A stretch of DNA of 64,000 bases, from contig OZ076409.1 of assembly GCA_964187785.1 (NCBI GenBank), positions 76,324,001 through 76,388,000 on the forward strand, given 5' to 3'. The notes beneath the pieces were generated by a model. It did not search any database and was not told the origin of the DNA. It saw only the letters and a list, made by a program, of their open reading frames with translations. A program made the position numbers and the translations under genes. Shown here piece by piece: positions 1 to 30,121 of the stretch (position 1 is the first letter of the stretch; each line of letters opens with the position of its first letter). This DNA comes from Amphiscolops sp. MND2022 (lineage: Eukaryota).

Positions 1-900
1 AATTGATGGAGTAATAGCCCCAAATCGCACACATTTTGTCGAATTTTTTCGAAACCCTAGTCTATCTCTGCCGTTTTTTGGCCAGATTTTTTTCCAGGAC
101 CTCTCCTAAAGGCCTCCCCTGGCCGGTTTACCTCCCAGAAAAACCAGTTGGCCCTAAATACGGAGTTTCAGCATTCCAGTATTCCCCGGGTAAAAGATAA
201 ATGACTTAGAATTTTTTTCGAAAAATTTTCAAAATTTTTTTTTCAACTTCAGGCCTCCCAAAGTCAGGAAACTTCCACACAACTAGTATTGCAAGTTAAT
301 GCATGTGGAAAGTGCTTGCATAGACAAGAAAAATGAGCTATTATACGACTCTGTAGCTTAACCTGACGTTGACTTATGACAATTTTAGTAAGAGCTTCCT
401 ATGTGAGAAAAAATTTCAAAAAGTGAAAATTGAATCTAAGTCTCTTCCAAAACTCATCGGAATACGTTCAATTCACACCAGAGCGGTTCAATTCCAGTTG
501 TATAGTGCAGCAACACCATTCAAGGTCTTTTGGTCCATTTTTATAACTTTTGACACCGTCTTGTTCATCCGATAGCACAAAACAGTTGAGTACATTCCAT
601 CTCCCCCCTTGTGGGGGAGATGAGAATATACTCGCTAAAAGTCAGGTACTATAGCGCCCATTTTGTTTTATTCGACGCTAGTGATGCTATTGCACACGAA
701 TACAATAGTTTTGTCAAATCATGTTTGACATGATGAATCTTACTTTACCTTTAGTTTACGTTTACCTACTACTACAACATCGCAGCCCTAACGTCAACGC
801 CACACACTCTCACTAACGCCCACCGTCCGTGGGCATGCCGAGGCATGCCCTTCGACGACGTATGCCAAATAGCGCCACAGGGCGCAAACTTGTCCGCTAG
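1..900 (+). mobile_element. Non-autonomous unit, short class (5' part outside the window)
   Basis: GAGTACATT hairpin 588-633, core, CTAG. Confidence 0.8.
790..900 (+). other. Conserved right-end core (first copy; present at 29 of 31 termini)
   Basis: CAACGCC-N-AACGCCCACCGTCYGTGGGCATGCCGAGGCATGCCCTTCGACGACGTAT, then ~26-41 variable nt, then CTAG. Confidence 0.9.
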
Positions 901-7285: not shown

Positions 7286-8682
7286 GTGGTCGGGTATTTT
7301 TTTTACTCGTATATGACGTTTGCGAGGCTTTGGGGAGGGCCCCGTGCCGAGCCTGTACCGAAATTTACCACATACCAGAAGTGTCCGATTTAATCGAGAT
7401 CTCCAAAACTAACCGTTAGAATTCTCTGAAATTTTGCATGTGGCCCCTAATCAATGAGTAATGAAAAAGTGTAGGAGTGACGGTTGCTGAAAAACTTGTC
7501 TTTGTTGCACTTTTTGCGCAATTTGTGTCGCATTGTTGCGTTTTTTATGTCATTTTCGACTTTTCAAGCAAAAAAGTCATAGATGCTTTGTTCCTAGCGT
7601 ATCAAGTGTGGAGCACGAAAAGTTGCAGCATCTTCAATAACGTATGCTGAGAAAATTTGGTTGCCCTCGGCTTACCCCCCACAGAGATACAGAGGTGCTT
7701 CCGGTTATTTTTGACCCCTAAATTTGGGAAAATGCTAATTATCGTAATAAAGCCGTAGAGTTAGCGTGTGCACACCCTGCTGGAGATTTGTTAGGCATTT
7801 TGAGATAGATCCGATGACATGCGTTCAGTTCACCCCCATCACCCCCTGGACCGGAAATGAACTTTTTTGTGTCCTTTCAGACCGGAAGTCTCCATTTTCA
7901 ACGGTAAGGAGTCCTTGTACGAACAACTCGCAGGGCATCAAAATTGAAGTACAATGTGGGGTGAGCCTAGTTACCACGTGTTGTCCAGTCATGGGTACCG
8001 CCATGACCGGAAACGGGGTCAAAACCCCCCCTATTGGTTGTTTTTTTATCAGTTTGACTAGTGTTTGGTCCACATTCAAGTCGCATAAGCACATTAAACC
8101 AGTGTGAGCATAGACTGCATGTTCACTGCGTAGACGTAACTGACGCTGCCATATACCGGAAGTAACCCCCTCTGACCGGAAGGGGTCAATTTTGACCGGA
8201 AATGGTCCAAAAAGTAGCGTAAATGCAGTTTTTCTTTGCTTTTTAAGGTCAAGTTACTACTTTCTTTTCAATTTGAATGCTATTTTCCACGCAAAAAGCT
8301 AACATCGTTGCATGTTTTGCTGAAGATCTGAAAAGTGCCCACCTTTATCACCCCCGATAGCCTTTCAAGTTGACCTTGGGTCAATCTTGAAGGCTATCTG
8401 TACTTAAAACGAAAAATAGAGTTAATTAGATTTCTCCTTTACGTTGACATTTTTCCTTCACATTAATTTGTTATGAAAAGAGTTTTTCCCAACTGAAAGA
8501 TCTTAAAATTGGTCAAAAGGTGCCACCCTGACAAAGATTATTTGCAATTGAAGTAAACTGAGAAAGAAGGTAGTGTTAGTCGACATCACACAAACTTACC
8601 AACGCCCACCGTCTGTGGGCATGCCGAGGCATGCCCTTCGACGACGTATGCCCAATATACGCGTTAGCGCGGTAGCTGCTAG
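7286..8682 (+). mobile_element. Non-autonomous unit, middle class (1397 bp)
   Basis: GATAGCC hairpin 8356-8398, ACCGGAA motifs, core, CTAG. Confidence 0.8.
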
Positions 8683-9949: not shown

Positions 9950-10998
9950 GTGCCCAAATCCATTGATTTGCCAAACACTTCGAGGGCGGGGTAGGGCCCC
10001 CAGCCCGAGTCAAAAGTCGAAGACAAACAACTTAAGGCAACTGTCGAATTCTCCTATCGATTTTCTAAACGAGCCATACGATTTGGCTGAAATTTTGCAT
10101 ACGGCTTCCTATAACAATCCTAAGAACTAATCCCTACTGGCGTTTTGCCCGGAAAAATCAAAAAGTGGGTCAAAATCTTAGTTTTTTGGTCAAAAAATGG
10201 CGTTTTTTTGGAAAAAATTTTTTTAAGAGCCAATATCTCGCTCCACAGGCCCCGGATCAAAAAGTGTACAATTGTTCGCGTGCTAGGCACTTCATGAACT
10301 GTCCGTAGACAAATTTTCGTCCAGATCGGATGAAAATTGACTGAGTAATAGAAAACTTTGAAAGTGATTTTGACGACATTTTTCGAAAACCTAGTCTATC
10401 TCTGCCGTTTTTTGCCCAGATTTTTTTCTAGGACCTCTCCTAAAGGCCTCCCCTGGCCGGTTTACCTCCCAGAAAAACCATTTGGCCCTTTTGCCGCAGT
10501 TTCAGCGTTCCAGGATTCCCCGGGTAAAAGATAAATGACTTAGAATTTTTCGAAAAATTTTCAAAAAATTTTTTTTTCAACTTCAGGCCTCCCAAAGTCA
10601 AGAAACGTCCACACAACTAGTATTGCAAGTGGATGCATGTGGAAAGTGCTTGAATAGACGAGAAAAATGAGCTATTATAAACCTCTGTAGCTTAACCTGA
10701 CGTTGACTTATGACAATTTTAGTGTGAGCTAGCTATGGGAGAAAAAATTTCGAAAATTGAAAATCGAAGGTAAGTCTCATCCAAAACTCATCGGAATACG
10801 TTCAATCTATCCCAATGCGATTTAATACCAGCTAAATAGTGCAGCAACATCATTCAAGGTCATTTGGTCCGTTTTTAAAACTTGAGCCAATTTAAAAGAC
10901 AGTTTGAGTATAGGTAGGTTTTTGCTTTTTCCAGATGTCGGAGATGACTTTTTCTGCATACAGGTAGTATTTGGTAACAGGTTACGTCCAGTAAGTAT

Positions 10999-11305
10999 CT
11001 TATGGGTTGACCAGACGCCCCAGTAGGTCTGGCACGCTTTTCGGCACCGCGTTTCCTGAAGCCGCTGTGATAGGTAGGTTGTTTTTTGTAAAAATTCACT
11101 CGAAAAATTTTTCCTTATGGGTTGACCAGACGCCCCAGTAGGTCTGGCACGCTTTTCGGCACCGCGTTTCCTGAAGCCGCTGTGATAGGTAGGTTGTTTT
11201 TTGTAAAAATTAACTCGAAAAGTTTCCTTATGGGTTGACCAGACGCCCCAGTAGGTCTGGCACGCTTTTCGGCACCGCGTTTCCTGAAGCCGCTGAGATA
11301 GGTAA
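10999..11305 (+). repeat. Tandem repeat, ~114-bp period, ~2.7 copies
   Basis: CTTATGGGTTGACCAGACGCCCCAGTAGGTCTGGCACGCTTTTCGGCACCGCGTTTCCTGAAGCCGCTG at 10999, 11114 and 11227. Confidence 0.95.
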
Positions 11306-11354
11306 GTTTAAATTCCTTTAATACTAAGGCTTAGTTTTTTTGTCCCACGTTTTT

Positions 11355-11490
11355 TCGGATTAGGTTTCTTTAACTAACTTTCTTAGGTTTTTTAGGATTA
11401 GGTTTCTTAGGCTTACTTTCTTAGGTTTTTTAGGATTAGGTTTCTTAGGCTTACTTTCTTAGGTTTTTTAGGATTAGGTTACTAAGGCTC
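11355..11490 (+). repeat. TTAGG-rich minisatellite, 38-bp period
   Basis: TTAGGTT at 11360, 11398, 11436 and 11474 with conserved intervening sequence. Confidence 0.9.
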
Positions 11491-11999
11491 AGGTGTAGGT
11501 TTTAAACAGATATTAAGTTATCATGTATTTTGTTTTTTATCAGGGACTGCAACAACGACGAAAAAGGAATAACCTTGACGCAGCTTCTTTTCAGTTGAAT
11601 AATTCACTATTCATTTCATTTATTTCATCTATCGAAGATTTCATTTTTGTTAATTGAAACCTTTGAAACCGAGTCTTTTATTATTCCATTACACATTCTT
11701 TCGAATTTCATATTACTTACGACATGATTCATTTTCGGCTTTATATTTTTTCCTAATAATTTTCTACTTACTTTTTTATTTCCTTCAAAACATTGTCATC
11801 GGCATGAGAAATACGCGGCCTCTATCGACTGCAAATTCTGCTTTTCTTTGTCAAAAAACACATATATTTTTCAAATTACTTTTGAATTTGAATTTGAACT
11901 TTTTATTTTTCGATTACATTTTTTCTACTCTTTATGCTTTTAAACTGTAATCCTCAGAATTCTATCTGTTTTCAGCTCAAAATTTTTCAGAGCTTCAAT

Positions 12000-12560
12000 A
12001 TGACCAAATTAATCGTCAACGGATTGACATTTAATGCCGTCATCAAAGAAACCAGCCATAATTCTACAATGCTTTTCGGAGATTCTATCGTTAGACATTT
12101 TAATATGTCTGAAATTGACAAAGTTTGCTTGCCAGGCGGACGATGTGAAGATTTTCGAGCGATTATACAAGCAAGCAATTTTTCCCGTACTAGAGTAGCC
12201 ATTCTAATGTTCGGAGGGAACGACCTTGAGAGTCGTTATAAAGGAAGGATTTGGCGTCAACGGTTGTCCCCAGAGGATATATTGCAACAGATTTTGGAAA
12301 TTGCGTTTTTCTTATCGAATCGAGAAGTGGCAGTCTACGTAGTTGGTATTCCGCACCGTGGAAATCACTCTTTTGCTGATATTAAAGAGTTAAACACCCT
12401 TCTGTTCAACAACAGATGTCAAGTATTTAACTATGTTGGCCTAGGCAGCCAATTGTCGAAGGCAGCGGTGATCGGTCAAGATGGCGTGCATCTAAATGAA
12501 GAAGGCTTAAGCCGACTGAAGACAATATTTAAGAATAAAATTCTTAAGCACATCCAATAA
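12000..12560 (+). CDS. SGNH/GDSL hydrolase (esterase)-like protein, similar in motif layout to transposon-associated esterases
   Basis: Blocks FGDSIVR, LPGG, FGGNDL and DGVHLN. The ORF is open from 11934; ATG 12000 follows a TTTTTCAG acceptor-like site and is the likelier start. Confidence 0.8.
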   Translation: MTKLIVNGLTFNAVIKETSHNSTMLFGDSIVRHFNMSEIDKVCLPGGRCEDFRAIIQASNFSRTRVAILMFGGNDLESRYKGRIWRQRLSPEDILQQILEIAFFLSNREVAVYVVGIPHRGNHSFADIKELNTLLFNNRCQVFNYVGLGSQLSKAAVIGQDGVHLNEEGLSRLKTIFKNKILKHIQ

Positions 12561-12754
12561 ATTGCTCTCCTGATTATTACTTTTTAAATCTCAAATTGAT
12601 TGTTCACGATATTGATTGTTTTTTATTTATTGCTTTTACTTGTTTGATCTTTTGATTGCTTGTTTTAAAAAGCTGTTTGTGTGGCCTACTTGCATTTGAG
12701 ATGAATTGAAATGTTTTTGTATACTTTTTTATTCGTTTAATTGTCTTTGATTTT

Positions 12755-12977
12755 CATCACTGATCGACGGAAAGCGTGGTCAGTGATTAGGATTTTTAAA
12801 CAAATTGAGGTAGAAGTGTCATCACTGATCGACGGAAAGCGTGGTCAGTGATTAGGATTTTTAAACAAATTGAGGTAGAAGTGTCATCACTGATCGACGG
12901 AAAGCGTGGTCAGTGATTAGGATTTTTAAACATAATAAGGTAGAAGTGTCATCAGTTATCGACGGGAAACGTGGTTC
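12755..12977 (+). repeat. 65-bp tandem repeat, each copy carrying a bulged hairpin
   Basis: ATCACTGATCGACGGAAAGCGTGGTCAGTGAT at 12756, 12821 and 12886; degenerate fourth copy at 12951. Confidence 0.95.
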
Positions 12978-13246
12978 TACATTCAGGTAATATTTGGTAA
13001 GAGGTTGCGTCTGGTAAGTCTGGTAATTTAGTAAGCAGTGAATGGTGTTCAAATACAAAAGGTGAAAATGAAGTGCAACCGTGTTTCCAGTTATACGCAA
13101 TCTTTGTTATCTGTCAAAAAATGGTGACTTTTTCTGATGATGTCTAACAGGATCAGCGTTTTTCCAGATTTGATTTGAATTGCTTTGATCTGCTTTGCCA
13201 ACATTAACTTGTTTTGCTTGGCTATCAAAGAGGCTAAAAGTCCCCA

Positions 13247-16200
13247 ATGCCTCGTGGTAGAGGGAGAGGAAGGAGTGGCGGTACAGCAAGGAGGAAGTGT
13301 CCTGTGCACAATTCTTTTGTTGGTGCCGATGGTGTGTGTGGCAGGTGTGCGTCACAGGTGGAGCAACATCAGCAGGTGGAGAGTGATCAAGATGATCAAA
13401 CAGCCAGTAATGGCATTGTCCCCAATCCCCCAGATGCCCCCAATGATTTAGAGACGTCGGAGATGGAGATGTGTGCGAAGTGTGCCAGGATTAGTACTAA
13501 CAATTATCAACTTGACTTTCACGTTATACAAAAAGACTCGACTCATTCGACTATGTTTGGTAAAAATGTGCATGAAACCCAAGAGGAGACGATTAAAATG
13601 TGCCTACAGTGTGTTAACTACGACAGAAACACCAGTCGTCATACAGATTGGCCCAACGCGTGGCCCAGCGTAATGTATACTTTGCTTTTCGAGACTCATA
13701 GGTTTAGTTCAAATGCAGAGAAACTTTACAAAATACTTCCACATGAAATCAAAGACTCCTATAAACAACATATGTACACTGTTCATCCATCAATAGTTAG
13801 AACTGTTAACGAATCTGTTTTGAGGGACATAACAAAGGAAAAAGAAGAATTTTGGACTTTAATAAACAGTCGAACTGCGAAAAACTTAGTCAATGCTCTA
13901 ACTAAACACTGTTTTCCTAACATAAGATGCCCAGCAGGTTGTTTCGAATTCGTCGAGAAATCCCAAGGAATTTCATTCGCACATTTTCTAAACTGGATTT
14001 ACCCTCTCTTTACTAGTTTCAATGCCAACAGTAGAAAATTTTTGAAGGGAGCTCGAGAGGATTTCATGAAACGTATAATTTTGTTGGAAAAATTCAATGT
14101 TGCACCTTGTATCATGGTTAACGAGAAAGGTTTACAGTTAGTTACTTGTTGTGATCATAAAAACGGTGTCCTATTAAACTACGTACATGTACCATCAAAT
14201 CCAGTAGCAGGTAACATCAGTCCTATGTTCGTAGACAGGTTAGCCCTAATGGTTTCAAGTGTCAGAACGGTAAGACCTCTTAAAATTGGCGCTAAAAGTG
14301 CAACATTCACTATGTGCCGTGTGGACAGTGGACGCATTAGTGGCGTAAGTTCCACGGTATTGCATCATTTCAGGAACTTTGAAGCACCTTACAATGTACG
14401 TAGGATTGACGTGGAAAAATTGATCTTTAACTGTAGGTCTGATGTGAAGGATTTAATTCGAACATGTTGTCAAAGGTTTGAAATTACTGAAAACATAGCC
14501 AATGAATTTTTGAGTTTTGAATGTCCAGTAGCACTGACAGCAATAGAAGAAAGTTGTAAGGACGGGACCGTTTTTAACATGAATGCATTGATGCATATGA
14601 AGGATTATGTTGAAAGTTGTCCAGACGATATTACTGCGCGGGAAGACTTTAAAAAGCCACTTACTTTTGGTCATAAACTAGACGGTTATGGCTGCGAGCC
14701 AGTACAGATTCCAAAACTTATTTCACAGGATGTAACACTTTTCCCAGTTGTATTTGCTTCTGTTCACATTCAATCTTTTTGGTCAAAATTAATTGCAATG
14801 TCAAGACTGCACGTTGGATTTGAAAACATTTGTAAGTTTATACATCGTGTTAGGCAAAGCAAAAGTTTGCAGGAGCGTTCGGCTATTCCGACAATTCTCA
14901 ACGGGTTGCACAGTGCTTTTATGGATGTATTCCCAGGTCGAAGTGAGATTTTAGTTGAAATTTGCGAAATTCTCGAGGGTTCTTCTGTTTTCAAATGTCA
15001 TGCGGTAGATTTGCCCAATTTGACCATTGACTGTACTAGGAATGATCTTCTTCTAGTCGCAAACAACCCGTCTAGTAGGCGTGACACTCAAATTCTGTTT
15101 GAGCTAACATCAATCAATGGGAAAGTTTTTCAGTTAATTTTCATTGCCTCAGACAATCAATTGAGCTTTCGCCATGGTTCTCCTTTTTATAATTTTTGGA
15201 CTGTTAAAAACGACGGCAGTCGTCCTCGTAAAGATCCAACATTAGAATACCAATACAATAGAAATTGGAAATATTTAGTTTATGTTAGTGAGACTCAAGT
15301 CAACGATGACCCTAAAATTCGATACCTAAAGTATATGGGAGGCCAAGGTGTTTTGTTTTGTCGGGAGCATAATTTACCGTTAACATCAGACTATTTTAAA
15401 AGCAATAGGAAATGTTCCTTACCTAAGAATACCACCAATAATGCAATATGCACTAGAAAATCCGCATGGAGATGCCCTGAAAAGAACTGTTGCGCATCTT
15501 CTTGTAAAACTCATTTCAATGATTTTTGCGACTCCACCGACCGGGTTCTCGTTGACAATACGCCATCAGCGGACCCAATTCAAGATAGTAGTGACGAGGA
15601 AATAGAGTTGGGAAATGAAATAGACGTCCAAGGCAATCTCGATCAGCCCGGGCCCAGCTTCGTTTTACCGGAAGTTGAAAGACCAGAGGACACAGACGCT
15701 AATATGGACGAATTCGATTGTCCTCAACTAATTGTTGACGCCGGTTTTCAAGAGACTAACAATTTCGCTACCGACTCAGGCTGTGAGCCCGTTTATTTAG
15801 CTAACGATTCAAAATTTGTTCCAATGCACGTTCTTTTAAACGGCGAATGTCAGTTGATGAAACGCTTAAGGTATCCTACGCATATAGGTAAAAAATTTCA
15901 ACGGTTTTTTCAAAATTTTGTTTCAACTTTAGAAGGTCGTTCAATTCCTCTTCTTCAACCCGAAGCGTGCTTGTTTCCCAGCATCTTTTACAAGCAGTTA
16001 GAAGACGGATCGTTTCCTGGTGCTTTGCCATTTTTTCTTTACGATGATAAGTTTGCAAATTCAAAGTTGGATTTTGACGGCCTCCATGAACACATCCGAT
16101 TGAGACTTAAGGACGGCTCACTTTTAACTTCGGCTAATCTCGCTTATATAATGTATGCGTTTGACTGCGTCCTGAATTTATCTTTAACAAAATGCCATAC

Positions 16201-19200
16201 AAATCAGTTTTTTAAACGAGGACTCCAGACAATCACAATTGGTAAGTATAAACCTCAGCAGCTGACATCTACTGAATCAGTTCTTAAAATGGATAGTGTC
16301 GATAGTGACGTGCATGTAAACCGCTTAGGAACCGCTTGCGCTTCCGAAACACCGGATCTTTTTGTTACTTTTACATGTAATCAAAAGGAACATCCTGGAG
16401 TTGCTGAGTTAGTTCAGGCCATTTTTGACATTTACAGAAACGCGTCGGTCGAAGAATTGAAAGAAGTGCTGCAGTCTTACATGGTCATCATTGTAAGATG
16501 TTGGACCAGGACAATTGAACTTTTGATTAATTACCTGAGATTTTCACCCGAACATATTTTAGGAGAAATTTCAAAGGTTTGGGGTAGGGCCGAATTTCAG
16601 AGCGCCGCAGCGAATTTGCAACATTACCATATTCTGTTCTGGGTAAAAAATGTTGATGAAGATGTCATAGACAAAATTGCTTGTGCACACAAAAATGTTT
16701 TTGCTGAGTTTGAAAGACTGTTCAATGTCAATTTTGGTACAGTCGAAAGTATTGAACACATAGGTAAGTTGTTCGATGATTGTGTCCGTGTTCAAACTCA
16801 TGACTGTGAGAAAGGACATTGCTTAAAAAAGGTTAGGTTAAATGGAGAAAGAAAATGTCGTTTCCCACCGTACCCACAGAGCCATGTTCCCTGGTACAAG
16901 GAATTCCATCAGCCGCATACACACGAGGCCTTAGAAGTTCTGCAGGCAATTGATTTAGCTGAACCAATGCCTGGTTTTTATAACACTTTGCAGGTCACTT
17001 CTACGCTGAAAGCAGGTAAGTATATGTATGCGGCTCAAAAGGGGGAGCATATGTCACCGCTCAATGTGCCTTTGTGGAGTATTTGTAAATCGAGCCTTAA
17101 TGTTTTGAAAGTGTGTAAGTCTGTCGCCTCGAGGTATTTAACATCGTATGCCGCGGGAAAAGAAGAACACGCTGAGGTTTCCATCAACCCCGAAAATTCT
17201 CACAATGTTTTAAATGTACAAGTTCAAAAAATTGAAAACAAAAAGTTAGGCGGAGTCAGAAAAATTTTAGCTCGTGAAGCAAAGCAGGAGAAAACTCAGG
17301 GTATAATAGATTCGACAACCATTGCCAGTACAGAATGTGTTTCGTGGATGTTGCAGCTTCCTACCGTAATAACTACAATGGATTTTTGTTCGGTTCCAAG
17401 TGTTTCGCTCGAAAATCGCGGTGGAGTTATTTTGAAAAGAAAAAACAATACTCAGTCAAGATCTAACCGTCCAGGTATAGCGAATGAAGGTCCAGCCGAA
17501 ATCAGAGAACATCATCTACATTTCCCTAATCACAGACTTTTCACACCGGGACAAAAAATTGTTTTGGAAAGTGTAAACAAAACACCTTTTAGTACCGATA
17601 AAGTTACTGTTTTTTCCATACGTCCCCCTGAATTGCTTTTTGTCAACAAACTGAAACTTTATTACAGGTGGTTCGTGCGAGAAAAGTTGCCAGGTAAAAA
17701 AGAAACTATTTGTGTTAGGTTTTTGAAAAATGATGTCAGAGACTCAACATGGGTGGATGGTGAAAACAAGGCCATTCGTTTAAGACCGTGTGCTGTTGAC
17801 GAATTTTCAAATTACATACAGGATTGTCTACTTCAAAACTCAGCTGATAATAGGCTGCTTGATGCTATGCTTGTAGTTTCTGAAGTAATCAACAATTTGT
17901 CCCACCCAAATCGATCATTTTTTGTTTCTGCTGACCCGAATTTGTCGAATACACCAGCTGAAGTCGTTTTTTCAAAAGTTTATCCACGCAGTCCCGCAAA
18001 CTTTTTGATTCATTTTTTGCTTTCGAACGCCAAATTTGAAACCGAACTAGAACTTTTTGACGTTGCCACTTTAAAAGACGCTTTTGTGAAAGGTGAAATT
18101 GTTCCAGACAAGCAAACTTTCGACGAACAGGATGTTAATGAAATTTTGAAAAAATACGTTCTTGAACAATTGAGGTACTTACCAGGTGGTACAAGGTCGT
18201 TTGATTCGAATTTGTTGGCTGCAAAATCTGCCTTCAAAGGTATGTTGATTGAAAACGACATTTATAATGAAGGGTTACCAATCACGACGATGGATACTTT
18301 GACTGAAGCACTGGAGGACAAAGCAAAGAAGATGCTTCGACAGTCTCAAGTAAACATCATTAAGTCGTTGACTCAAAAAAACTTACCTAATTTTCCTTCT
18401 TCAGCTGATTTCGAAACAGTGACCAAAGAAACACCTTCCAATTGGTCCGCTGAATTGATAACAAATGTTTTTCAGTCTGCTGAGTCAGTTCAAGAGCAAT
18501 CGCTAATTTTGGAAACTTTAAAAGATCTAATTGTTGAGAGTTTGTTTGCAGGTCACAAGTTCAATAAACATCAGTTAATTTTAGGTCCGCCCGGTACTGG
18601 TAAGACTTATGTGTTGACAATGGCGTTAGGTTTTGCTTTATCAAAAGGTTTGTTTTGTCTTGTAACGAGTTTGGCATCCAGAAGATCGATGCACTTTGGA
18701 GGTGAACACATACATAAACTGTTTTGCTTGCCACCTTCTTCGTCAGGGTCCCCAATCAAAATGGCTGAGCAAGCATTGACAAAACTGGACCACAGAAACG
18801 ACAAGAAGATGCTCCTCCTGGCTTTGGAAGTGCTGTTCGTTGAAGAAGTAAGCTTGATAAGCGCCGAACAGTGGTCTGCAATGGACATTACATTGCAGGA
18901 GTTGAAGCAGTCAAGTCTGCCTTTTGGTGGCGTACTGGTAATTGCGAGCGGAGACCAGATGCAACTACCATCCATTGACGGCAATGACATCTTTCTTAGT
19001 CCGGTACTTTTGACAAACTTCGCATTGTTTTTTCTCGGACATTTCGTTCGAATGACCGATAAAGACGGTCAGACTGTGCTTCGTCACATGTGGAAGCGTC
19101 CGATCAATCCTGCCGCTGTCGCTGAGATTCTGGCAATTTTGGATGCCAAATGTACCTTTAAAGACAGTTGGGCGGACCTCGACGATCCGTGTGTTATGCG

Positions 19201-20365
19201 TGTTTTCGGAAAGCGGAAAGCCGAGCAAAGGGAGTTTGATAGTCACATTGAGCGAGTACGCGGCTCCGGAATTGCGTTTAAGATCTTCGAAGCTACGGAC
19301 GAAATTTGTCTTTCTAAGAGCTCTGTTTGGAACCTTACTAACTCAAGACAGGTAAGTAATTATTTGAGTGATAAGGTAAATGAGCCGGAAAAACTGATAA
19401 TTTACAAGAAGGCTCTGGTGAGGGTCACCGTTAATTTGGAATCCGAGCAGTTGTCGCAAGGTCAGGTAGGTGTAGTCCACGAGGTTCCCACCGGTGACTC
19501 GGTCACAATTCACATCCCCGATACAAGTGGTGGCGATTTTGACATCACTCCGGCGATGTTGGAACACGAGGAGTACCTTAACTGGCGAACGGTGACTCTT
19601 TCCAAACAAACAGGGTTTGTGCAACCGTTCAAGAAGAACTCCATCCGAAGATGTCAAATTCCTTTGATGAACAACGTTGCCATGACCACGCACAAACTGA
19701 TGGGTGACACGTTCGACAAGCTGGCGACCTCCATCTCCGCAACTGACAGCAGCTACGCATTGTGGATGACGTCGCAAGTTTTCGTGATCGTCAGTAGAGT
19801 TAAGCAGTTGAAAAACCTGACGTTCGTCGGAAACAAGTCGGCTACGTTGGACGCGATAAGATCTATTTTTGAAACTAAGGACTTGCGCGAAGAGCGTCTT
19901 TTCTCGTTGTTGGATAAAATAAGGAACAATTCGAGATCTGGTTCTACTGTTCAACCCATCGACGTTTCGCAAATGTCATACGTTCCCTTCAATAAGAACA
20001 TACCGCGGACGCCTTATGGATTCGTTTACCTTTTGATAAGCCTTAACCCGACATCGCCTCAAACGTTTTACGTTGGTCAAACTGAGCGCGCATTGTTAAC
20101 ACGTTTGTCGGAACACAATTGTGGCAACGGGTCCGATTTCACTAAAACACCTCACAGGATGCCTTGGGCCGTCGCAGCGTTCGTTTGTAATTTTTCGTCA
20201 TCTATTTCACGCCGCGATTTTGAACAAGAACTGCACAGCGAAATGTACGAACGCCGTCATCGGTTGAAAACGCTCAACAACATGATCGCTCTTTTCCAGG
20301 AGAAGGTTTCGGAAAGAAATTGCGGACTACATTTTTGCGTGTGCGGACAGTATAGGGCTACTTGA
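13247..20365 (+). CDS. Helitron RepHel transposase (HUH Rep + Pif1-family SF1B helicase) with C-terminal GIY-YIG nuclease domain
   Basis: Uninterrupted 2372-aa ORF. Rep motifs DLFVTFTCN (~16355), AEFQ...QHYHILFW (~16590-16640), YLTSY (~17135). Helicase motifs GPPGTGKT (18584), LFVEEVS, GDQMQLPSI, AMTTHKLMGDT, QVFVIVSRVK. GIY-YIG: GFVYLL...FYVGQT...RLSEHN...FEQEL from 20018. Cys/His clusters in the N-terminal third. Confidence 0.92.
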   Translation: MPRGRGRGRSGGTARRKCPVHNSFVGADGVCGRCASQVEQHQQVESDQDDQTASNGIVPNPPDAPNDLETSEMEMCAKCARISTNNYQLDFHVIQKDSTHSTMFGKNVHETQEETIKMCLQCVNYDRNTSRHTDWPNAWPSVMYTLLFETHRFSSNAEKLYKILPHEIKDSYKQHMYTVHPSIVRTVNESVLRDITKEKEEFWTLINSRTAKNLVNALTKHCFPNIRCPAGCFEFVEKSQGISFAHFLNWIYPLFTSFNANSRKFLKGAREDFMKRIILLEKFNVAPCIMVNEKGLQLVTCCDHKNGVLLNYVHVPSNPVAGNISPMFVDRLALMVSSVRTVRPLKIGAKSATFTMCRVDSGRISGVSSTVLHHFRNFEAPYNVRRIDVEKLIFNCRSDVKDLIRTCCQRFEITENIANEFLSFECPVALTAIEESCKDGTVFNMNALMHMKDYVESCPDDITAREDFKKPLTFGHKLDGYGCEPVQIPKLISQDVTLFPVVFASVHIQSFWSKLIAMSRLHVGFENICKFIHRVRQSKSLQERSAIPTILNGLHSAFMDVFPGRSEILVEICEILEGSSVFKCHAVDLPNLTIDCTRNDLLLVANNPSSRRDTQILFELTSINGKVFQLIFIASDNQLSFRHGSPFYNFWTVKNDGSRPRKDPTLEYQYNRNWKYLVYVSETQVNDDPKIRYLKYMGGQGVLFCREHNLPLTSDYFKSNRKCSLPKNTTNNAICTRKSAWRCPEKNCCASSCKTHFNDFCDSTDRVLVDNTPSADPIQDSSDEEIELGNEIDVQGNLDQPGPSFVLPEVERPEDTDANMDEFDCPQLIVDAGFQETNNFATDSGCEPVYLANDSKFVPMHVLLNGECQLMKRLRYPTHIGKKFQRFFQNFVSTLEGRSIPLLQPEACLFPSIFYKQLEDGSFPGALPFFLYDDKFANSKLDFDGLHEHIRLRLKDGSLLTSANLAYIMYAFDCVLNLSLTKCHTNQFFKRGLQTITIGKYKPQQLTSTESVLKMDSVDSDVHVNRLGTACASETPDLFVTFTCNQKEHPGVAELVQAIFDIYRNASVEELKEVLQSYMVIIVRCWTRTIELLINYLRFSPEHILGEISKVWGRAEFQSAAANLQHYHILFWVKNVDEDVIDKIACAHKNVFAEFERLFNVNFGTVESIEHIGKLFDDCVRVQTHDCEKGHCLKKVRLNGERKCRFPPYPQSHVPWYKEFHQPHTHEALEVLQAIDLAEPMPGFYNTLQVTSTLKAGKYMYAAQKGEHMSPLNVPLWSICKSSLNVLKVCKSVASRYLTSYAAGKEEHAEVSINPENSHNVLNVQVQKIENKKLGGVRKILAREAKQEKTQGIIDSTTIASTECVSWMLQLPTVITTMDFCSVPSVSLENRGGVILKRKNNTQSRSNRPGIANEGPAEIREHHLHFPNHRLFTPGQKIVLESVNKTPFSTDKVTVFSIRPPELLFVNKLKLYYRWFVREKLPGKKETICVRFLKNDVRDSTWVDGENKAIRLRPCAVDEFSNYIQDCLLQNSADNRLLDAMLVVSEVINNLSHPNRSFFVSADPNLSNTPAEVVFSKVYPRSPANFLIHFLLSNAKFETELELFDVATLKDAFVKGEIVPDKQTFDEQDVNEILKKYVLEQLRYLPGGTRSFDSNLLAAKSAFKGMLIENDIYNEGLPITTMDTLTEALEDKAKKMLRQSQVNIIKSLTQKNLPNFPSSADFETVTKETPSNWSAELITNVFQSAESVQEQSLILETLKDLIVESLFAGHKFNKHQLILGPPGTGKTYVLTMALGFALSKGLFCLVTSLASRRSMHFGGEHIHKLFCLPPSSSGSPIKMAEQALTKLDHRNDKKMLLLALEVLFVEEVSLISAEQWSAMDITLQELKQSSLPFGGVLVIASGDQMQLPSIDGNDIFLSPVLLTNFALFFLGHFVRMTDKDGQTVLRHMWKRPINPAAVAEILAILDAKCTFKDSWADLDDPCVMRVFGKRKAEQREFDSHIERVRGSGIAFKIFEATDEICLSKSSVWNLTNSRQVSNYLSDKVNEPEKLIIYKKALVRVTVNLESEQLSQGQVGVVHEVPTGDSVTIHIPDTSGGDFDITPAMLEHEEYLNWRTVTLSKQTGFVQPFKKNSIRRCQIPLMNNVAMTTHKLMGDTFDKLATSISATDSSYALWMTSQVFVIVSRVKQLKNLTFVGNKSATLDAIRSIFETKDLREERLFSLLDKIRNNSRSGSTVQPIDVSQMSYVPFNKNIPRTPYGFVYLLISLNPTSPQTFYVGQTERALLTRLSEHNCGNGSDFTKTPHRMPWAVAAFVCNFSSSISRRDFEQELHSEMYERRHRLKTLNNMIALFQEKVSERNCGLHFCVCGQYRAT

Positions 20366-20427
20366 AATTCATTATCTTTTTCTTTAAAATAAAATTTAAA
20401 ATAAGGTATTTTGTGTTTTTTTTTGGT

Positions 20428-20742
20428 GGAATCGACGATGAGCGTGGTTCCAGGTAGGTTGTAATTAGGTTGGTTTGCTGGAATCGACGATGAGCGTGGT
20501 TCCAGGTAGGTTTTAATTTGGTTGGTTTGTTGGAATCGACGATGAGCGTGGTTCCAGGTTTGTTAAGGTTAACCTAAGTTGCTGGAATCGACGATGAGCG
20601 TGGTTCCAGTTTTTTTAACATTGATTTAATTTGGTGGTTTTCTTTACATTAGATTAGTGGATGAGTATCGCACAAAGTTCTACTAAAGAGGGTGGACACC
20701 GTGCGATATTCAACAGGTGGAATCGACGATAACCGTGGTTCC
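20428..20742 (+). repeat. 52-bp-period repeat of hairpin GGAATCGACGATGAGCGTGGTTCC
   Basis: Copies at 20428, 20480, 20532 and 20584; loop variant at 20719. Confidence 0.95.
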
Positions 20743-22241
20743 TTGTTTAAATGTTTTTAAAAGTACCAGGGTAGGAATAAAGAAGAAAGTGACAATGACG
20801 TAACGGACTGAACAGATGACGACGATCTAGAAGAAAGACTAAAAGTGTAAAAGCTTGTGTACTCCTTCCAAGCTTATACACAACTTTTAAAAAAATTACC
20901 ATCAAACCATATAACCAGTGTGGCAGCACGTGTACTCTTTGAGCTTACCACGCTGACACACTCTACGTAAATAAAGATCGTCAAATCCCAAAAACTGAAA
21001 TATCATACCAAAACCGGACTTTCCCAAAACCGACTTTTCCACTACGACTTTTTGACTAAAACTTAAAGACTGAAACTTAATTGACTGAATTTAACTCTTT
21101 TCCTACTCCTACAATTGGTTTTCCCTGAGTTTAGCTAGAAGGTTGAGTTGAGAGAAGACGAGATAGACCTCAGAGTAGCAGCAACCGCGGTAATTTCCGA
21201 ATTACAATATTTTTAATAGTTTGGACAGGAAAACTTAGATAGAGTAATAGTTTTTCTGGAACCATATATATGGCTATAAACATCTTTTTCAGTCCAGGCG
21301 ATGTCCTGGCCGGCGAAGCCTTGTGCCAGGACGGAGCCCTATTAGAGGTTGATCATCAGAAACGATTGTTTTTATTATTTGAAATTTTACAATGCTGCTA
21401 CTAGTCAAAACGTGATCAGAAGAACGAAGAAGATTCCGAAGATGATATTATTCAATATCTAATATAGTAAAATTTATAGCAAAAGTCATAGCTATAAGTC
21501 TGACATGTTTTTCGTGCTTCACTTTTTTGAAAGGTTGTAGGTTTAGGATAGGCTGTAGCACATCAGAATCAGTCCCTGCGAAGGTTCAGTCGAATGTCTC
21601 TCATCAAAAAAAGCTACGATTCCAGTCATAGCAAAAGTTATTAGGTTAAAATACTATCCACAACAGAGTTCCCTTTTGCTTAACCTACTTTTCATGTTTG
21701 TCTCTCCGTCATATGGTGAAAACATTGCAAGATGAAAAATGAAAACGAAATTTGTAAAAACAACTTATGTAGTAATGGAAGGCTTTGGTTGTTATTGGTT
21801 TTTGGGAATAAAAAATACGGAAGAGTTGTTCACCATGTTAACTGGGACAAGCATGGAAAGCCACTTCATTTTAAGATATCTCATCATCATAAGGGCGGTG
21901 TTATCTCTCATCCATAAGGTGTGGAGGTTGTCATTTTGAATCGTTCTCAAGTTTGAATACAATAATTTATCGTCCTTTTGAGATAATCATTACGAAAATT
22001 TTCGTCCAAAACGTCTATCCTTCACATATCCGCACATTAGGCTAGCAGTAATCATAGCGGTTATTGTAACTTACTATCGAAGTCAGAACGTTTCCATGAA
22101 GAACATATATTAAGATCCGGGAAAATCTCATTTTGTATCGACAGTGTATTATCTATACACAAGTATTATATCCAAACTACTTTTCTTCGTCTCGTTTATT
22201 GATTTGATTGCCATTATGTTTTCAGTTCTTGTTTGGTAACA

Positions 22242-23210
22242 ATGCCCGGATATTTGAAAGCATCGTTGACGCTGGCCCAAGCTCGTCAAACAGTGACCGA
22301 TCGCTATACAGTTAGCAATACCACCATTCTGACAGCTGACCAGACTCCACGGTTCTTCTGCGTTCCATTTGTTTTCCTGTACGCATCTCCGTCTGCAGGA
22401 AAGAAGCTCTCTTTCGTAAAAACGCAAAGAAATGACACAAGGAAAACAAAGTTCATGGAAATTGAGAAGTTCCACCGCTTTGTTTTGTTGGGATCAAGAG
22501 CAACAGAAGAAGTATTCGCAATGTTTACAGATACGGCTCTGGAAACCCACAACCTCTTCCGATATCAAAACAATGTTCTGCCTGGAACCATCGTACATGT
22601 CCTTAATCCAAAAGTAGAGGGGCTGTTGAGAGCTACCAACACAACCCTACTCTCCTCGATAGAACCACTGATTCCAAATCAAAATCAGCCGGTTATAAAT
22701 CTCGAACTTCCACACTCCCTAGAAATGGCCACTTTTCGGTATTTCGAGTTTATCTCCACGACAATAACCATTACGTCTGCAACAGCTACCGAAAACGTAT
22801 GTCCCAGTGGGTTCTGCGATGCGCAGTTTGTGTTACAGAATTGTGGCTGCTTAGCCGTTTCGTCAAAAAAGAAATGGGCCCTGACGCTGGTAGTAGATAG
22901 CGATGAGTTCGCTCCACTAGAGGACGTGGACAATGTGTACATAACCTCTAATCATGTAACAGATCTTTTTGTGTCGGCAGAGAGGCAGGAATTGTCGCCG
23001 AACTCAACGGACTTCGATCCATTTGCAATGGACACGGCCATTGTAAATATGTGCCAAGCAATCAATGGAAACGGGGGGTTTATTGTAAAAGGCTGGTTTA
23101 AGCCAAGCTCAACAGACGATGGCGCCACCAATGAAGTGAAGCGGGTTCATGTTTGCCTGTTGAAAAATTATAACGACCTTACCGATGCCATTGCACAGAT
23201 GAAATATTGA
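22242..23210 (+). CDS. Hypothetical element-encoded protein, possibly OB-fold / RPA70-like ssDNA-binding
   Basis: ~322-aa ORF; the ATG follows a TGTTTTCAG acceptor-like site. CPSGFC...CGC followed by KWALTLVVD resembles the zinc-ribbon/OB layout of RPA70 DBD-C. The product is an inference. Confidence 0.6.
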   Translation: MPGYLKASLTLAQARQTVTDRYTVSNTTILTADQTPRFFCVPFVFLYASPSAGKKLSFVKTQRNDTRKTKFMEIEKFHRFVLLGSRATEEVFAMFTDTALETHNLFRYQNNVLPGTIVHVLNPKVEGLLRATNTTLLSSIEPLIPNQNQPVINLELPHSLEMATFRYFEFISTTITITSATATENVCPSGFCDAQFVLQNCGCLAVSSKKKWALTLVVDSDEFAPLEDVDNVYITSNHVTDLFVSAERQELSPNSTDFDPFAMDTAIVNMCQAINGNGGFIVKGWFKPSSTDDGATNEVKRVHVCLLKNYNDLTDAIAQMKY

Positions 23211-23306
23211 AGTCATTTGACTGCATCTGTTTACAGAGATTCGCTAGAAGGCAAGAATTAATCCGACTGGAAACTGCGGTCGATTCTTTAGTTGCCTTTT
23301 TCTTTC

Positions 23307-24114
23307 CTTAGAGATCGACGATGAGCGTGGTCTTCTAAGTTTTGTGTTTTCGTATTAATCTAATTCAAACTCAGTGCTTTCCGTTTAAATCAGTACCTAC
23401 AATGCCGACAGTATTGAATTAAAGTTAGTCTTCATTATCACAAACACTTGAACTGTTTTTCGTATTATTCCATTAGCTGCTTCATGTTTATTTATAACTC
23501 CGCAGCTGTAAGTTTTACATGTAACCAATGTTTTCTCAAAAAAAAACATGATACATTTTGAATGTCATTCCGTTCATTTCGAAATAATTAAACTGTTCGC
23601 CATTTATTTACTTTTTCAGTGGTGAAGTCCAGTAGTTACGACAGGAAAGTCCCAATTTCTGAAAAACACATTTTCCTACAATTTGATTTCTACATGTGTT
23701 TCTAATTATGTTGAATAGTTGGCAGTTAGTTCAAATGTTCGTAAGTGTTGAGTTTAATAGAAGTACATTGTTCAATATCATTTGCGTAACGTTAGATAGC
23801 ATTTTGAACGACCTAATGTATCATTAGCTGATTTGATAAAACATAGTTCGAGTTTCTGTGGTTTTTTTTCGGATGAACTTTTGAATGGAAAATAGAAACA
23901 AAATTGGAATAGGTTTCTAAAATACTAACATCATACGACAGCAAACATTTTCCCAAAAAGGCATCCCTTTTGCGCCCGCTAATTAGTAGTTACTGCTGCT
24001 TGAAGACACATAATTCGATTAGATCAGCCTCATTTACTGGAATCGACGATATGCGTGGTTCCTGGTAAGCTTAAATCAGTCTCATTTGGTGAAATTGGCG
24101 ATAGTCGTGGTTCC
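23307..24114 (+). repeat. Dispersed copies of the same bulged hairpin downstream of ORF3
   Basis: 23307-23339, 24039-24062 and degenerate 24091-24114. Confidence 0.8.
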
Positions 24115-24309
24115 AAGTTTGCTTATTTTGAATTTGAGTGTAACTATGTAACGACAACCCTTCCGCATTCTCTAACATCATTAACCACTAATTAACCTCT
24201 CAACCAACACCCGACTGAAGACGATTCTTCTCCAATCACGTAAGTAACTTTTTTCTCTCTTTAACACTTTCCCGCCTACTGGACTCTTCGTTTTGCCGTC
24301 CACGTCTAG

Positions 24310-25594: not shown

Positions 25595-26878
25595 GTGCCA
25601 AAATCTATTGATTTGCCAAACACTTCGAGGGCGGGGTAGGGCCCCCAGCCCGAGTCAAAAGTCGAAGACAAACAACTTAAGGCAACTGTCGAATTCTCCT
25701 ATCGATTTTCTAAACGAGCCGTCAGATTTGGCTGAAATTTTGCATACGGCTTCCTATAACAATCCTAAGAACTAATCCCTACTGGCGTTTTGCCCGGAAA
25801 ATTCAAAAAGTGGGTCAAAATCTTAGTTTTTTGGTCGAAAAATGGCGTTTTTTTGGAAAAAATTTTTTTAAGAGCCCATATCTCGCTCCCAGGTGCCCGT
25901 AGCGACCAGACCTCGGACGGTACTATTGCTGGGCACTTCGTAAGGAGTCCGTAGACAAATTTTCGTACAGATCGGATAAAAATTGACTGAGTAATAGCCG
26001 TCATTGGGACGCATTTTTTCGACTTTTTTCGAAAACCTAGTCTATCTCTGCCGTTTTTTGCCCAGATTTTTTTCCAGGACCTCTCCTAAAGGCCTCCCCT
26101 GGCCGGTTTACCTCCCAGAAAAACCATTTGGCCCTTTTGCCGCAGTTTCAGCGTTCCAGGATTCCTTGAGTAAAAGTAAAATGACTTAGAATTTTCTCAA
26201 AAAATTTTCAAAATTTTTTTTTCAACTTCAGACCTCCCAAAGTCAGGAAACTTCCACACAACTAGTATTGCAAGTGAATGCATGTGGAAAGTGCTCGAAT
26301 AGACGAGAAAAATGAGCTATTATAAAGCTCTGTAGCTCAACCTGACGTTGACTTATGATAATTTTAGTGTGAGCTTGCTATGTGAGAAAAAATTTCAAAA
26401 ATTGAAAATCGAGCTAAGTCTCATCCAAAACTCATCGGAATACGTTCAATCCACCCTAAAGCGGTTTAATTCCAGTTACTAAGTGCAGCAACACCATTCA
26501 AGGTCATTTAACCCATATTTATAATTTTTGACACCGTCTTATCCATTTGAAAGTTCGAAACAGTTGAGTACATTCCATCTCCCCTACGTGGGAGATGGCA
26601 ATGTACTCGCAAAAAGCCAAGGTCCTACCGCCCTATTCTATCCGGCGTTGCATCAGAAATGCAGTAGCATGAGCTCCAGGTTGTTTGCAGTAGCCTTTAC
26701 GTATGTTGTGACTATGTATTACAATTCTAACTCTGTTACTAAACATGAAAAAATTGTTTCAATCCCAAAAATTTTCATTTCAACTTTAGTATGTCACCAA
26801 TAAACATATATGCATCTTTCCTACTACAACCACCCTACCACCCGGCCCCTTGTCCACTGTTCAACCGTGCACGTCTAG
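25595..26878 (+). mobile_element. Non-autonomous unit, short class (1284 bp), with the ends of the autonomous element
   Basis: Same left end as 9950; terminates in CACGTCTAG; lacks the palindromic core. Confidence 0.8.
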
Positions 26879-28147: not shown

Positions 28148-30121
28148 GTGCGGGGGGGTAACCCCAACAAAATTTTTGGAGGATTCGGGTAGGGTCCTGA
28201 ATCCGAGTTCAGTGCTGCCAGCTTTCGTTAAGAAAATTTGGATAGGATTCGGGATCTCGTGATCTAACCATAGGATTTTAAAGTTGGAGCGGCCCCCACC
28301 AGATTTTCCGAAAATTAGCGCCCCCCACCGGGTTCCATACCCCGGAAAATTTTTTTCTGGCCACACGGGCGACCGTTAGGGGGTCATTTTAGGGGTAAAA
28401 TTCATATTGGGCCACATAACTTTTTTTCTGTTGATTTAAAACTTTGGGACCCTGCTAAAAGTTTCTTGACCGTGTTGCAGGGGCCCCGGAGGTCCAAACC
28501 AAATTTTTCTATCTTGAAGCTATCTCCAAGTACCCCCCCGCCCAAAACGTTATTTTTCCGGAAACGCAGGTTTTTGACCCGGAAGGAGTCGTCTGAGCGC
28601 GGGGTCGTTAGGTGATGTTTTGGGGACGGCCTTGAGACGAAGTGGGGGACATGTAGTTTGCCGACCTCGGTTTACCCCTCGGACAGGAAATGACCGTTAT
28701 ATGAGCGGGAAAATTACCCCCCTCCACGTTTTACCGCTATTTCCGGTGTGAAGGAGTGGGAGTAGCGCGTCGGGTGCCATATATCAAAAGTAGGTTTAGA
28801 CAAGGATCTATCGGAAACATGTGGTTTGGGACCCCCTGGACCAACCCGTTAGCAGGAAATGGGGCTTCCGGCCCGTTTTTTTACGGTTAAAAACGGAAAA
28901 TGGGCATTGAGGGGTAAATATCTCGTGAACGCTTGGAGCTACGGTGTCCTTCACTACTACAAGGTTTCATCCCCATGATATGGTGCCTTCAGGGGGGCAA
29001 ACAGATTTCCGCTATCTATCACCGTTACGGACTTGGCCCCCCAGCCTAACCGTTAAGTTACCGGAAATGTCATATTTTGAGCCCAAAGGGTCGGTCCCAG
29101 CCAGGGAACGTTAGGTAACTTATTGTAGTACTCAATGAGACGAGTTGGGGGACATAGTTTTAGTCACCCCCCGTTACCCCTTGGGACCGGAAATGACCGT
29201 TATGTGAGTGAATTTGCATTTTTTATACTCTTTGAAGTGCATTTATGTGCGGAAGGAGTGGTAATAGGTGCTTGGACACTATATGAGGTAAGGGAGGACG
29301 TGAGGCGAGCACTCGGAAATAACCGTTATGTTGACCCTAAAGCCCCCTGGTACCGGAAGTGACCCGTAATGGTCAAATTTTGTGTTCAAAGGGTACAAAT
29401 GTTTGGTGTTTTATGGATAACAGTGCCTATTAGGTGTTTCGACGGTCTGCAGTCGTGAACATAGTCATGAAACCTTGTGGGGGGTAACGGTATATAGCAC
29501 CGGAAGTCCAAACCTTTGGAGAAAGGATAAGTTTTTTGGTTTTAAAACGTCTTTCGGCCTACTTTTGTCGACTATCATGGTCTATTTTTGAAAAATAAAA
29601 TTTTTCCATATAGTTTCAGAGACTCCGAAAACTCAACCAACATAACCGTTACCTTATGATAGCCTTTCAAGTTGGCCTGGTGTCAACTTGGAAGGGCTAT
29701 CTTTCAAAAATCATTAATCAAGTGTGTTTTTGAGTATGTTTGTATTACTTTAGAATCAATTAGAGCTTCAAGAAAAGTTTGCCAACGACTAAAATTATGT
29801 CGTGATGATTCCGTTATTAGAATAATGGTTAAGAAAATGTTGATAAATTTGATTTTTTACATTTCAAATGTGTCCTAAATGCCAGAAAACCTCTTTACTA
29901 AACAAATGGTATTGAGTGAATTGTATATAACAGCTAATAAAAGTTCAAATTGAATATTACATTTCATTATGCAAGCTGAAACGTCAAATTATAGTTTAAT
30001 TAACGTCAACGCCACATACTTTACATCAACGCCCACCGTCCGTAGGCATGCCGAGGCATGCCTTTCGACGACGTATACCAAATTCCACCCACACAACACC
30101 CTCGAGCGCGGTAGCAGCTAG
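28148..30121 (+). mobile_element. Non-autonomous unit, long class (1974 bp)
   Basis: GTGCGGGGGGG start, GATAGCC hairpin 29658-29701, core, CTAG. Confidence 0.8.

Follow-up and report, generated by a model that had tools for sequence, protein, structure and literature searches.

The described systems closest to this locus are Helitron-like elements of the HLE1 and HLE2 types, the Helitrons of Paramecium, and transposable elements that carry a motif for a host stress factor. In Helraiser, the stem of the hairpin is exchangeable and its loop essential (PMC4778049); the Fusarium elements FoHeli1 and FoHeli2 have hairpins 38 to 51 nt from their 3' end (PMC5148889), and reversed ORFs are found in some Helitron2, Fusarium and Paramecium elements (PMC3627910, PMC5148889, PMC13085455). 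Sites for p53, the consensus of which is two RRRCWWGYYY decamers with a spacer of 0 to 1 nt (PMC4287438), are borne by LTR10/MER61 (PMC4287438), Alu (PMC3032802) and zebrafish EnSpm-N6_DR (PMC3485254), and the p53-family domain of an annelid binds the Con1 site (PMC8901663).

The window, by which we mean the whole 64-kb stretch of DNA analysed, carries an array of Helitron-like units placed head to tail in a single orientation and meeting at an identical heptamer, CTAGGTG, which is found on the + strand at all 31 junctions between 897 and 63404. Units were defined by cutting the window at this heptamer, giving 2 partial and 30 complete units, the latter comprising 13 of family A, 12 of family B, one related 2.8-kb unit, 2 of family C, one C-A chimera and one autonomous unit of 14.36 kb.

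897 to 903, + strand: junction heptamer CTAGGTG, invariant, the exchange point between units
901 to 2169, + strand: example of a family-A non-autonomous unit (~1.27 to 1.31 kb; 13 complete units)
28148 to 30121, + strand: example of a family-B non-autonomous unit (~1.97 to 1.99 kb; 12 complete units)
30122 to 32919: family-B-related unit of 2.8 kb
7286 to 8682, + strand: family-C non-autonomous unit of 1.39 kb (second copy at 54570 to 55959)
9950 to 24309, + strand: autonomous Helitron-like element of 14.4 kb, whose right end, finishing in CCACGTCTAG, lacks the conserved block described below
25595 to 26878, + strand: family-A-bodied unit without the block, ending in GCACGTCTAG as the autonomous element does
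864 to 896, + strand: hypervariable tail from block to junction, 26 to 41 nt long across units and travelling with the upstream unit
588 to 633, no strand assigned: long internal hairpin of family A (z -5.66)
29658 to 29701 and 8356 to 8398, as examples: a different long hairpin at a similar place in families B and C

The interiors of families A, B and C have only 0 to 4% in common (9 representatives), yet a 49-nt block is common to all three. Each family also has its own internal hairpin of ~45 nt lying 200 to 500 nt before the block, alike in position and shape and different in sequence. The tails are more variable than the bodies, even where family-B units are 85 to 91% alike; several hold small GC-rich hairpins, and only some have a small hairpin ~11 nt from the junction.

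Compared over the 406 pairs formed by the 29 ends with a block, tails resemble one another in step with their upstream bodies (rho 0.49, p 0.001) but show no such relation to the unit that comes next (rho 0.06, p 0.15), the upstream and next units being themselves only weakly linked (rho 0.10, p 0.04); in 10 of the 12 pairs of near-identical ends, the next units are only 46 to 65% alike. Neighbouring units have thus been exchanged at the CTAGGTG junction, and the units are mosaics that have undergone internal recombination with one another as well. No bases are added at any of the 31 junctions, in a window that holds neither an empty site nor host flank, and this absence would fit strand transfer within CTAGGTG. 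Rep proteins carry out site-specific recombination at plasmid nick sites. This mixed-family, junction-specific array is a more novel feature than the p53 match and is unusual regardless of p53, since unrelated non-autonomous families and an intact autonomous element meet at one heptamer. Such a cassette-like array implies that a Helitron-like enzyme, to which a GIY-YIG nuclease is fused, integrates in a sequence-specific way and targets its own elements, and it offers a testable route to Helitron target choice and to the conversion of transposons into satellites. We found no mixed-family Helitron array at one junction in the literature, although subscription papers, Repbase and supplements (HELIANO's included) might describe the clade.

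The preliminary description had singled out a palindrome at the right end of nearly every unit as a full p53-family response element matching at 19 of 20 positions.

831 to 850, + strand: p53-like palindrome with a 9-bp stem and GA loop, the first of 29 terminal copies
Starts of the 20-mer, copies 1 to 10: 831, 2101, 3416, 4684, 5951, 7220, 8617, 9884, 25532, 28082
Copies 11 to 20: 30044, 32843, 34836, 36812, 38103, 39395, 41368, 43339, 45333, 47307
Copies 21 to 29: 49278, 50555, 52521, 54492, 55888, 57176, 59162, 61358, 63325

All 29 reported copies were recovered where they had been placed, each on the + strand and each with a spacer of 0 between its two RRRCWWGYYY decamers. The main form, GGGCATGCCGAGGCATGCCC (24 copies), and the A..T variant, AGGCATGCCGAGGCATGCCT (at 7220, 30044, 32843 and 54492), both agree with the consensus at 19 of 20 positions, so that the variant does still fit as had been said and the 19/20 match stands in 28 of 29 copies; a third form that the preliminary description had not told apart, GGGCATGCCGAGGCGTGCCC at 61358, reaches 18/20, one of its cores being CGTG, while both CWWG cores are intact in the other 28. 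The 20-mer is present at 29 of 31 right ends, the exceptions being the autonomous element (9950 to 24309) and the unit at 25595 to 26878, but it is subterminal, lying 39 to 54 nt before the CTAG of the junction. No further site with two or fewer mismatches to the consensus occurs within the 64 kb, and at 0.45 sites per kb, or one per 2.2 kb, the array is not dense, unlike the platform that had been suggested.

The 29 copies are paralogues of one 49-nt block, hence an effective n of ~1. By chance, 0.04 to 0.07 sites matching at at least 19 of 20 positions are expected anywhere in the ~25 kb of non-redundant sequence; a given palindrome with a 9-bp stem and a 2-nt loop would match about once in 3000, before multiple testing, and a duplicated self-complementary octamer would fit the p53 core in ~3% of cases. 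The p53 match is uncommon, yet it is not beyond chance when many hairpins and many motifs are allowed for. As the 20-mer is identical at 16 of 20 positions to the Con1 site bound by the annelid domain, its binding in vitro by a p53-family protein is plausible by analogy.

The 20-mer is the inner part of a longer conserved segment.

815 to 863, + strand: 49-nt conserved subterminal block with the palindrome (mean of 0.93 mismatches per copy)
790 to 801, + strand: upstream AACGTCAACGCC motif, in which AACGCC repeats the block start 18 to 20 nt earlier; less conserved

The inverted repeat extends beyond the 20-mer as CGTC-(3)-9 bp-(3)-GACG. Over the block (positions -16 to +33), copies are 97% identical to one another; the sequence upstream reaches only 59%, the tail 56% and the following unit 60%, against a shuffled baseline of 53%. 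Variable sites in the 29 copies number four in the left 16 nt, three in the 20-mer and none in the right 13 nt, positions 21 to 33 being invariant in 29/29 (identity 1.00 versus 0.97 for the 20-mer). The inner stem is 100% paired in 31 copies (16 distinct rows); one of its pairs has gone from G-C to A-T, and wobbles occur three times. Every change in the 9-bp stem keeps pairing, including three that break a CWWG core. None of 500 shuffles reached this paired fraction, a figure inflated by the relatedness of the copies, and any C>T change yields a G-T wobble. A change at position 1 is always accompanied by one at position 20, both staying within the p53 consensus, and the A..T allele, the sole change to affect both sides of a pair, may have arisen only once. 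The internal loop holds the common variant at -3 as well as the variant at -2. Conservation confined to a p53 site and shaped by it was not seen among these copies, although independent changes are few: the flanks are as conserved as the site, the non-consensus G10, its sole p53 mismatch, is fixed in 31/31 copies, and changes follow pairing. The p53 reading was correct as to the consensus match, but p53 is not singled out by the conserved flanks, the fixed G10 and the core breaks that keep pairing.

An alternative hairpin, GCCCAC/GTGGGC, is 92.7% paired, is broken by three variants and shows no covariation, and was set aside. A mini-element made of block and tail, inserted between ACGTC and TAG, was likewise rejected, as ACGTC is missing upstream in several units and the tails go with the body that precedes them. 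The block was also considered as a micro-ORF, a hammerhead and a spliced leader, each of which was rejected on sequence grounds; the consensus hammerhead core is absent from it. A bacterial promoter scan was empty.

A profile search with the block found one additional copy in the window, which the preliminary description had missed.

61142 to 61191, + strand: internal diverged block copy in the chimeric unit 59239 to 61426, 244 nt from the junction

Its 20-mer, AGGTATGCCGAGGTATGCCT at 61159, matches the p53 consensus at 17/20 and has lost both CWWG cores, each CATG having become TATG (core C to T), while the stem stays paired through G-T wobbles. This copy carries 7 changes over 50 nt, compared with a mean of 0.93 in 49 nt for the terminal copies, which shows that constraint depends on closeness to the end; the surrounding body is 54 to 65% identical to family A. 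Two of the four changes fall at core positions, with a probability of 0.06, and a single mutation, copied from one repeat to the other, may account for the paired changes; the loss of the p53 site with pairing kept is thus suggestive only as evidence on constraint. A compensatory outer pair hinges on gap placement and was scored as unpaired. The chimeric unit is C-like in its 5' part and A-like in its 3' part, and its left end is without the usual loop motif; the diverged internal block is followed 43 nt on by CTGA, a possible lost junction, and then by a new intact end.

Beyond the window, a metagenome scan with the block pattern gave a single match, here called L001, which has the same layout, a body 70 to 80% like family A, a block matching at 47/49 positions and the junction CGAGGTG. 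Viral contigs gave 0 matches to a 26-nt pattern and no RepHel relative.

The left ends of the units carry a hairpin of a different kind.

934 to 960, + strand: left-end hairpin with a conserved G[T/G]AGGG loop, the loop 41 to 54 nt from the junction, mostly 47

This hairpin is found at 30 of 31 left ends, the autonomous element included (~9981 to 10009), and in L001 (~915 to 940). Its stem sequence is free: there are 14 distinct forms, and arm identity is 0.46, versus 0.97 for the right 20-mer, falling to 0.29 among 7 family representatives. Pairing holds in 71 of 98 outer cells, whereas swapping the arms gave 45.9 +/- 4.3 and, in 5000 rounds, at most 61, with an anchor and register picked per sequence that favour pairing. 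With its free stem and conserved loop, the left-end hairpin resembles that of Helraiser, and by this analogy it may, when read on the - strand (...CACCTAG-3'), be the true terminator, the ORFs then being reversed. The right stem, on the other hand, appears to be recognised as sequence and not as shape alone: since the left stem is free and the right one fixed, the bases of the right block would be recognised by something. The preliminary description had allowed that the match might be incidental to a hairpin, which is too simple, as the right stem has a constant sequence even between unrelated families and the stem of the left-end hairpin does not.

The autonomous element shares its left end and left hairpin with the non-autonomous units, the right block being absent from it. 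Its first 934 nt are 90% identical to the unit at 25595 to 26878 and 74 to 89% identical to other family-A units; its best p53 match is 17/20, and no perfect half-site is present.

13238 to 20365, + strand: RepHel ORF of 2375 codons, first ATG at 13247
11898 to 12560, + strand: ORF with weak similarity to SGNH/GDSL hydrolases, below the Pfam cut-off
22203 to 23210, + strand: ORF resembling OB-fold ssDNA-binding proteins (POT1/MEIOB/RPA-like), a structural lead of low recognition score with no Pfam hit

RepHel consists, in order, of an N-terminal Cys/His-rich domain, a USP/UCH-like fold, an HUH Rep domain, a PIF1 helicase and a C-terminal GIY-YIG domain. Pfam detects Helitron_like_N (E 3e-10), PIF1 (E 3e-11) and GIY-YIG; the HUH motif (H1129-x-H1131), the tyrosines Y1300/Y1304 and Walker A are intact, and these motifs are conserved in 15 aligned proteins. 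In a model of residues 70 to 790, a USP/UCH protease fold was matched (USP12, Z 12.2, rmsd 3.2, 187 aligned), pointing to a predicted cysteine-protease-like USP/UCH fold at ~14669 to 15298 in the transposase that is undetected by Pfam. A p53-like domain inside RepHel was considered and rejected, as residues 70 to 790 gave the USP fold only and no p53 fold was among the matches listed. The Cys/His-rich region (13508 to 14614, residues 91 to 459) is modelled with confidence (pLDDT 87.5), no listed structural match to it exceeded Z 3.3 or fell below E 2, and it is a candidate DNA-binding domain.

Among 7994 candidates scored, 26 were full-length RepHel relatives, 13 of them at 76 to 99% identity; a search with the Rep domain gave 448 representatives, and the OB-fold-like ORF had only 3 close relatives. 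In 20 long relatives chosen from 150 listed, GIY-YIG is present in 14 (12 above cut-off), and DUF6570, a domain placed upstream of Rep in HLE2, was not detected by Pfam in any of the 20 or in the window protein, although divergence could hide the domain. An organism is named for 2 of 20 relatives, Myxine glutinosa (a hagfish; 34%) and Styela clava (an ascidian; 30%), which would point to an animal host.

With an HUH Rep bearing two tyrosines fused to a PIF1 helicase, the element is Helitron-like. Its likeness to HLE1 lies in HUH Rep plus PIF1, CTAG at the junction and a subterminal palindrome, and, with Helraiser, in an OB-fold-like ORF downstream of RepHel and in head-to-tail joints (PMC4778049, PMC11417382). 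A CTRR-3' end of the HLE1 kind is present as CTAG at 31/31 junctions, L001 having CGAG, but the 5'-TC start with insertion between A and T was not found, CTAG being followed by GTG on the + strand and by variable bases on the - strand, nor was a hairpin 10 to 12 nt before CTRR, the distance here being 39 to 54 nt. Unlike Helraiser, this locus has a fixed stem, hairpins at both ends and a C-terminal GIY-YIG domain, and only the helicase region of the window RepHel matches the Helraiser protein (E 3.6e-6). As in HLE2, hairpins occur at both ends (left 30/31, right 29/31), and the subterminal distance of the right one is as in FoHeli1/2 (PMC5148889). Further resemblances to HLE2 are the UCH-like fold, which by HELIANO is almost confined to HLE2, and the GIY-YIG domain, which is also found in Sphagnum HelenSM92 (PMC3627910, PMC5148889, PMC11417382). 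ATIRs of 8 to 16 nt, as in HLE2, were not found in 30 units (longest exact inverted match, mean 6.1 versus 6.5 in shuffled sequence, maximum 8), and the array elements differ from HLE2 in lacking a site between T and T and a match to AP endonuclease. By its termini, the RepHel-GIY-YIG clade fits neither HLE1 nor HLE2. Paramecium Helitrons likewise lie outside HLE1/HLE2 (PMC13085455); they have long ORFs as well as ORF-less derivatives, keep to a strict orientation, use several alternative right ends and are inferred to be target-specific, but they insert into telomeric repeats and end in CCAA, whereas the units here abut at CTAGGTG.

We lean towards the view that the block is a cis-acting site for the element's own proteins and that its likeness to a p53 site is incidental. 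Non-autonomous elements would have a cis-acting block of 49 nt close to their right end, with the 20-mer as its inner stem-loop, and would be mobilised in trans by a RepHel-GIY-YIG transposase like that at 13238 to 20365. The transposase would nick and rejoin within CTAGGTG, and an element-encoded protein would recognise the block base by base and, when single-stranded, also as a stem-loop. The block could be an origin or terminator binding site, or a recognition site steering the next insertion, which would go to the junction 39 to 54 nt downstream, each block-bearing unit thereby providing a further landing site. That the stem consists of two GGCATGCC octamers, self-complementary and 10 nt apart, would account for the p53 fit; the block may be bound by p53, but something else would maintain its sequence.

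A p53 site covers only 20 of the 49 conserved positions; a single element-encoded reader of the whole block is more economical. GIY-YIG homing nucleases recognise long sites. An element signal is favoured by the presence of the block in families with unrelated interiors and by its 47/49 match in the independent record L001. The fixed G10 is a loop position kept despite its p53 mismatch, and it is the loop that matters in Helraiser (PMC4778049). Against an element signal, the autonomous element and its closest non-autonomous relative (25595 to 26878) lack the block, which therefore is not needed wherever an end is mobilised; it might be present in other autonomous subfamilies (13 clusters at 76 to 99% identity), and a landing-pad role is compatible with the block-less units because both lie directly behind block-bearing ones (n=2). 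Moreover, the fixed stem, so unlike those of Helraiser and the left hairpin, would be explained equally well by a host factor.

Such a host factor is the substance of an alternative that we consider unlikely, namely a stress-responsive cassette with a selected p53-family site that would activate the neighbour's transcription or nicking after DNA damage, or titrate p53. In an array or circle, the block lies directly upstream of the next unit's left end, and the site at 9884 sits 2.1 kb and 3.3 kb upstream of autonomous ORFs; the autonomous element, however, as the sole gene-bearing unit, itself lacks a site. A 19/20 match without spacer and with two CATG cores, expected in ~1 in 3000 hairpins of this shape, and a stem fixed as sequence when the left hairpin is not speak for such a cassette, as does a putative likeness of the flanks to CRE-like and EGR/KLF-like motifs, but the 29 flanking nt are equally or more conserved, G10 is fixed against the consensus and the terminal copy at 61358 has CGTG. 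Variation at positions 1 and 20 stays within the p53 consensus, yet their coupled change is unneeded for p53, and the internal copy, with an intact copy just 200 nt away, has lost both cores. Both organism-named RepHel relatives (2/20) are animal, but sponges are without a p53-family gene (PMC5543598).

Precedents exist in ERVs, Alu, zebrafish EnSpm-N6_DR and the HSE-bearing Helitrons of Caenorhabditis. Like LTR10/MER61, Alu and EnSpm-N6_DR (itself a non-autonomous DNA transposon; PMC3485254), the units here carry a strong zero-spacer consensus site on a multicopy element; those sites have ChIP or reporter evidence and are dispersed near genes, whereas this one is known from sequence and belongs to the terminal block of rolling-circle elements that lie in a cluster. 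Binding at TE-borne p53 sites often occurs with no activation of the neighbours (PMC4287438). The Caenorhabditis Helitrons also bear a host stress-factor motif, there for HSF-1 with occupancy shown, here p53-like with one end-linked site per unit (PMC6927752). We found no p53 site in Helitron ends in the literature, although subscription papers, Repbase and supplements might hold one.

Distinctly improbable is a further reading, in which a RepHel-GIY-YIG clade builds cassette-like arrays by site-specific insertion at the ends of related elements and the terminal module of the non-autonomous units combines a landing pad with a true p53-family site upstream of the next unit. If true, array growth, or activation of an adjacent autonomous element, would be a response to DNA damage. 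Transposons with p53 sites are known, but such a site in a rolling-circle end signal would link mobilisation to the damage response.

We also regard as doubtful, and highly unlikely, an ordinary Helitron terminator hairpin in which shape and loop matter and the sequence is fixed by recent ancestry. The palindrome lies before CTAG, its 20 nt compare with the 19-bp palindrome of Helraiser (PMC4778049) and all stem changes keep pairing; however, it is 39 to 54 nt from CTAG instead of 11, its stem is constant across families with unrelated interiors and variable tails, and shuffled sequences fold as well as the end region does (z -0.47, -0.77). The left-end hairpin is closer to the Helraiser pattern, so polarity may be reversed.

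Equally hard to credit is a block kept uniform by short-tract gene conversion without selected function. The mosaic units do indicate frequent recombination, and the block is the longest homology common to all families, but its edges are sharp, variants avoid paired positions, and the tails stay with the upstream body, so crossovers are not concentrated in the block; in L001, moreover, the block is 47/49 while the body is 70 to 80% alike.

A small structured RNA or micro-ORF is very improbable, since, although several common variants fall at third positions of one frame, no Rfam match reached gathering score in the 64 kb (best local E 0.44) and, in 3 copies, a TAA precedes the candidate frame, whose length up to the junction is not constant.

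The autonomous element holds two further kinds of repeat.

12762 to 12976, 20430 to 20740, 23313 and 24041 to 24112, + strand: copies of ATCGACG-N4-CGTGG
10999 to 11489, 12754 to 12975 and 20422 to 20609: minisatellites in non-coding parts, with periods of 115, 38, 65 and 52 nt

The likeness of ATCGACG-N4-CGTGG to the left flank of the block is weak, 33 to 57 of 200 null sets being as good. Its 12 copies are all on the + strand, occur only in the autonomous element and each follow an ORF. CpG is not depleted (o/e 0.97).
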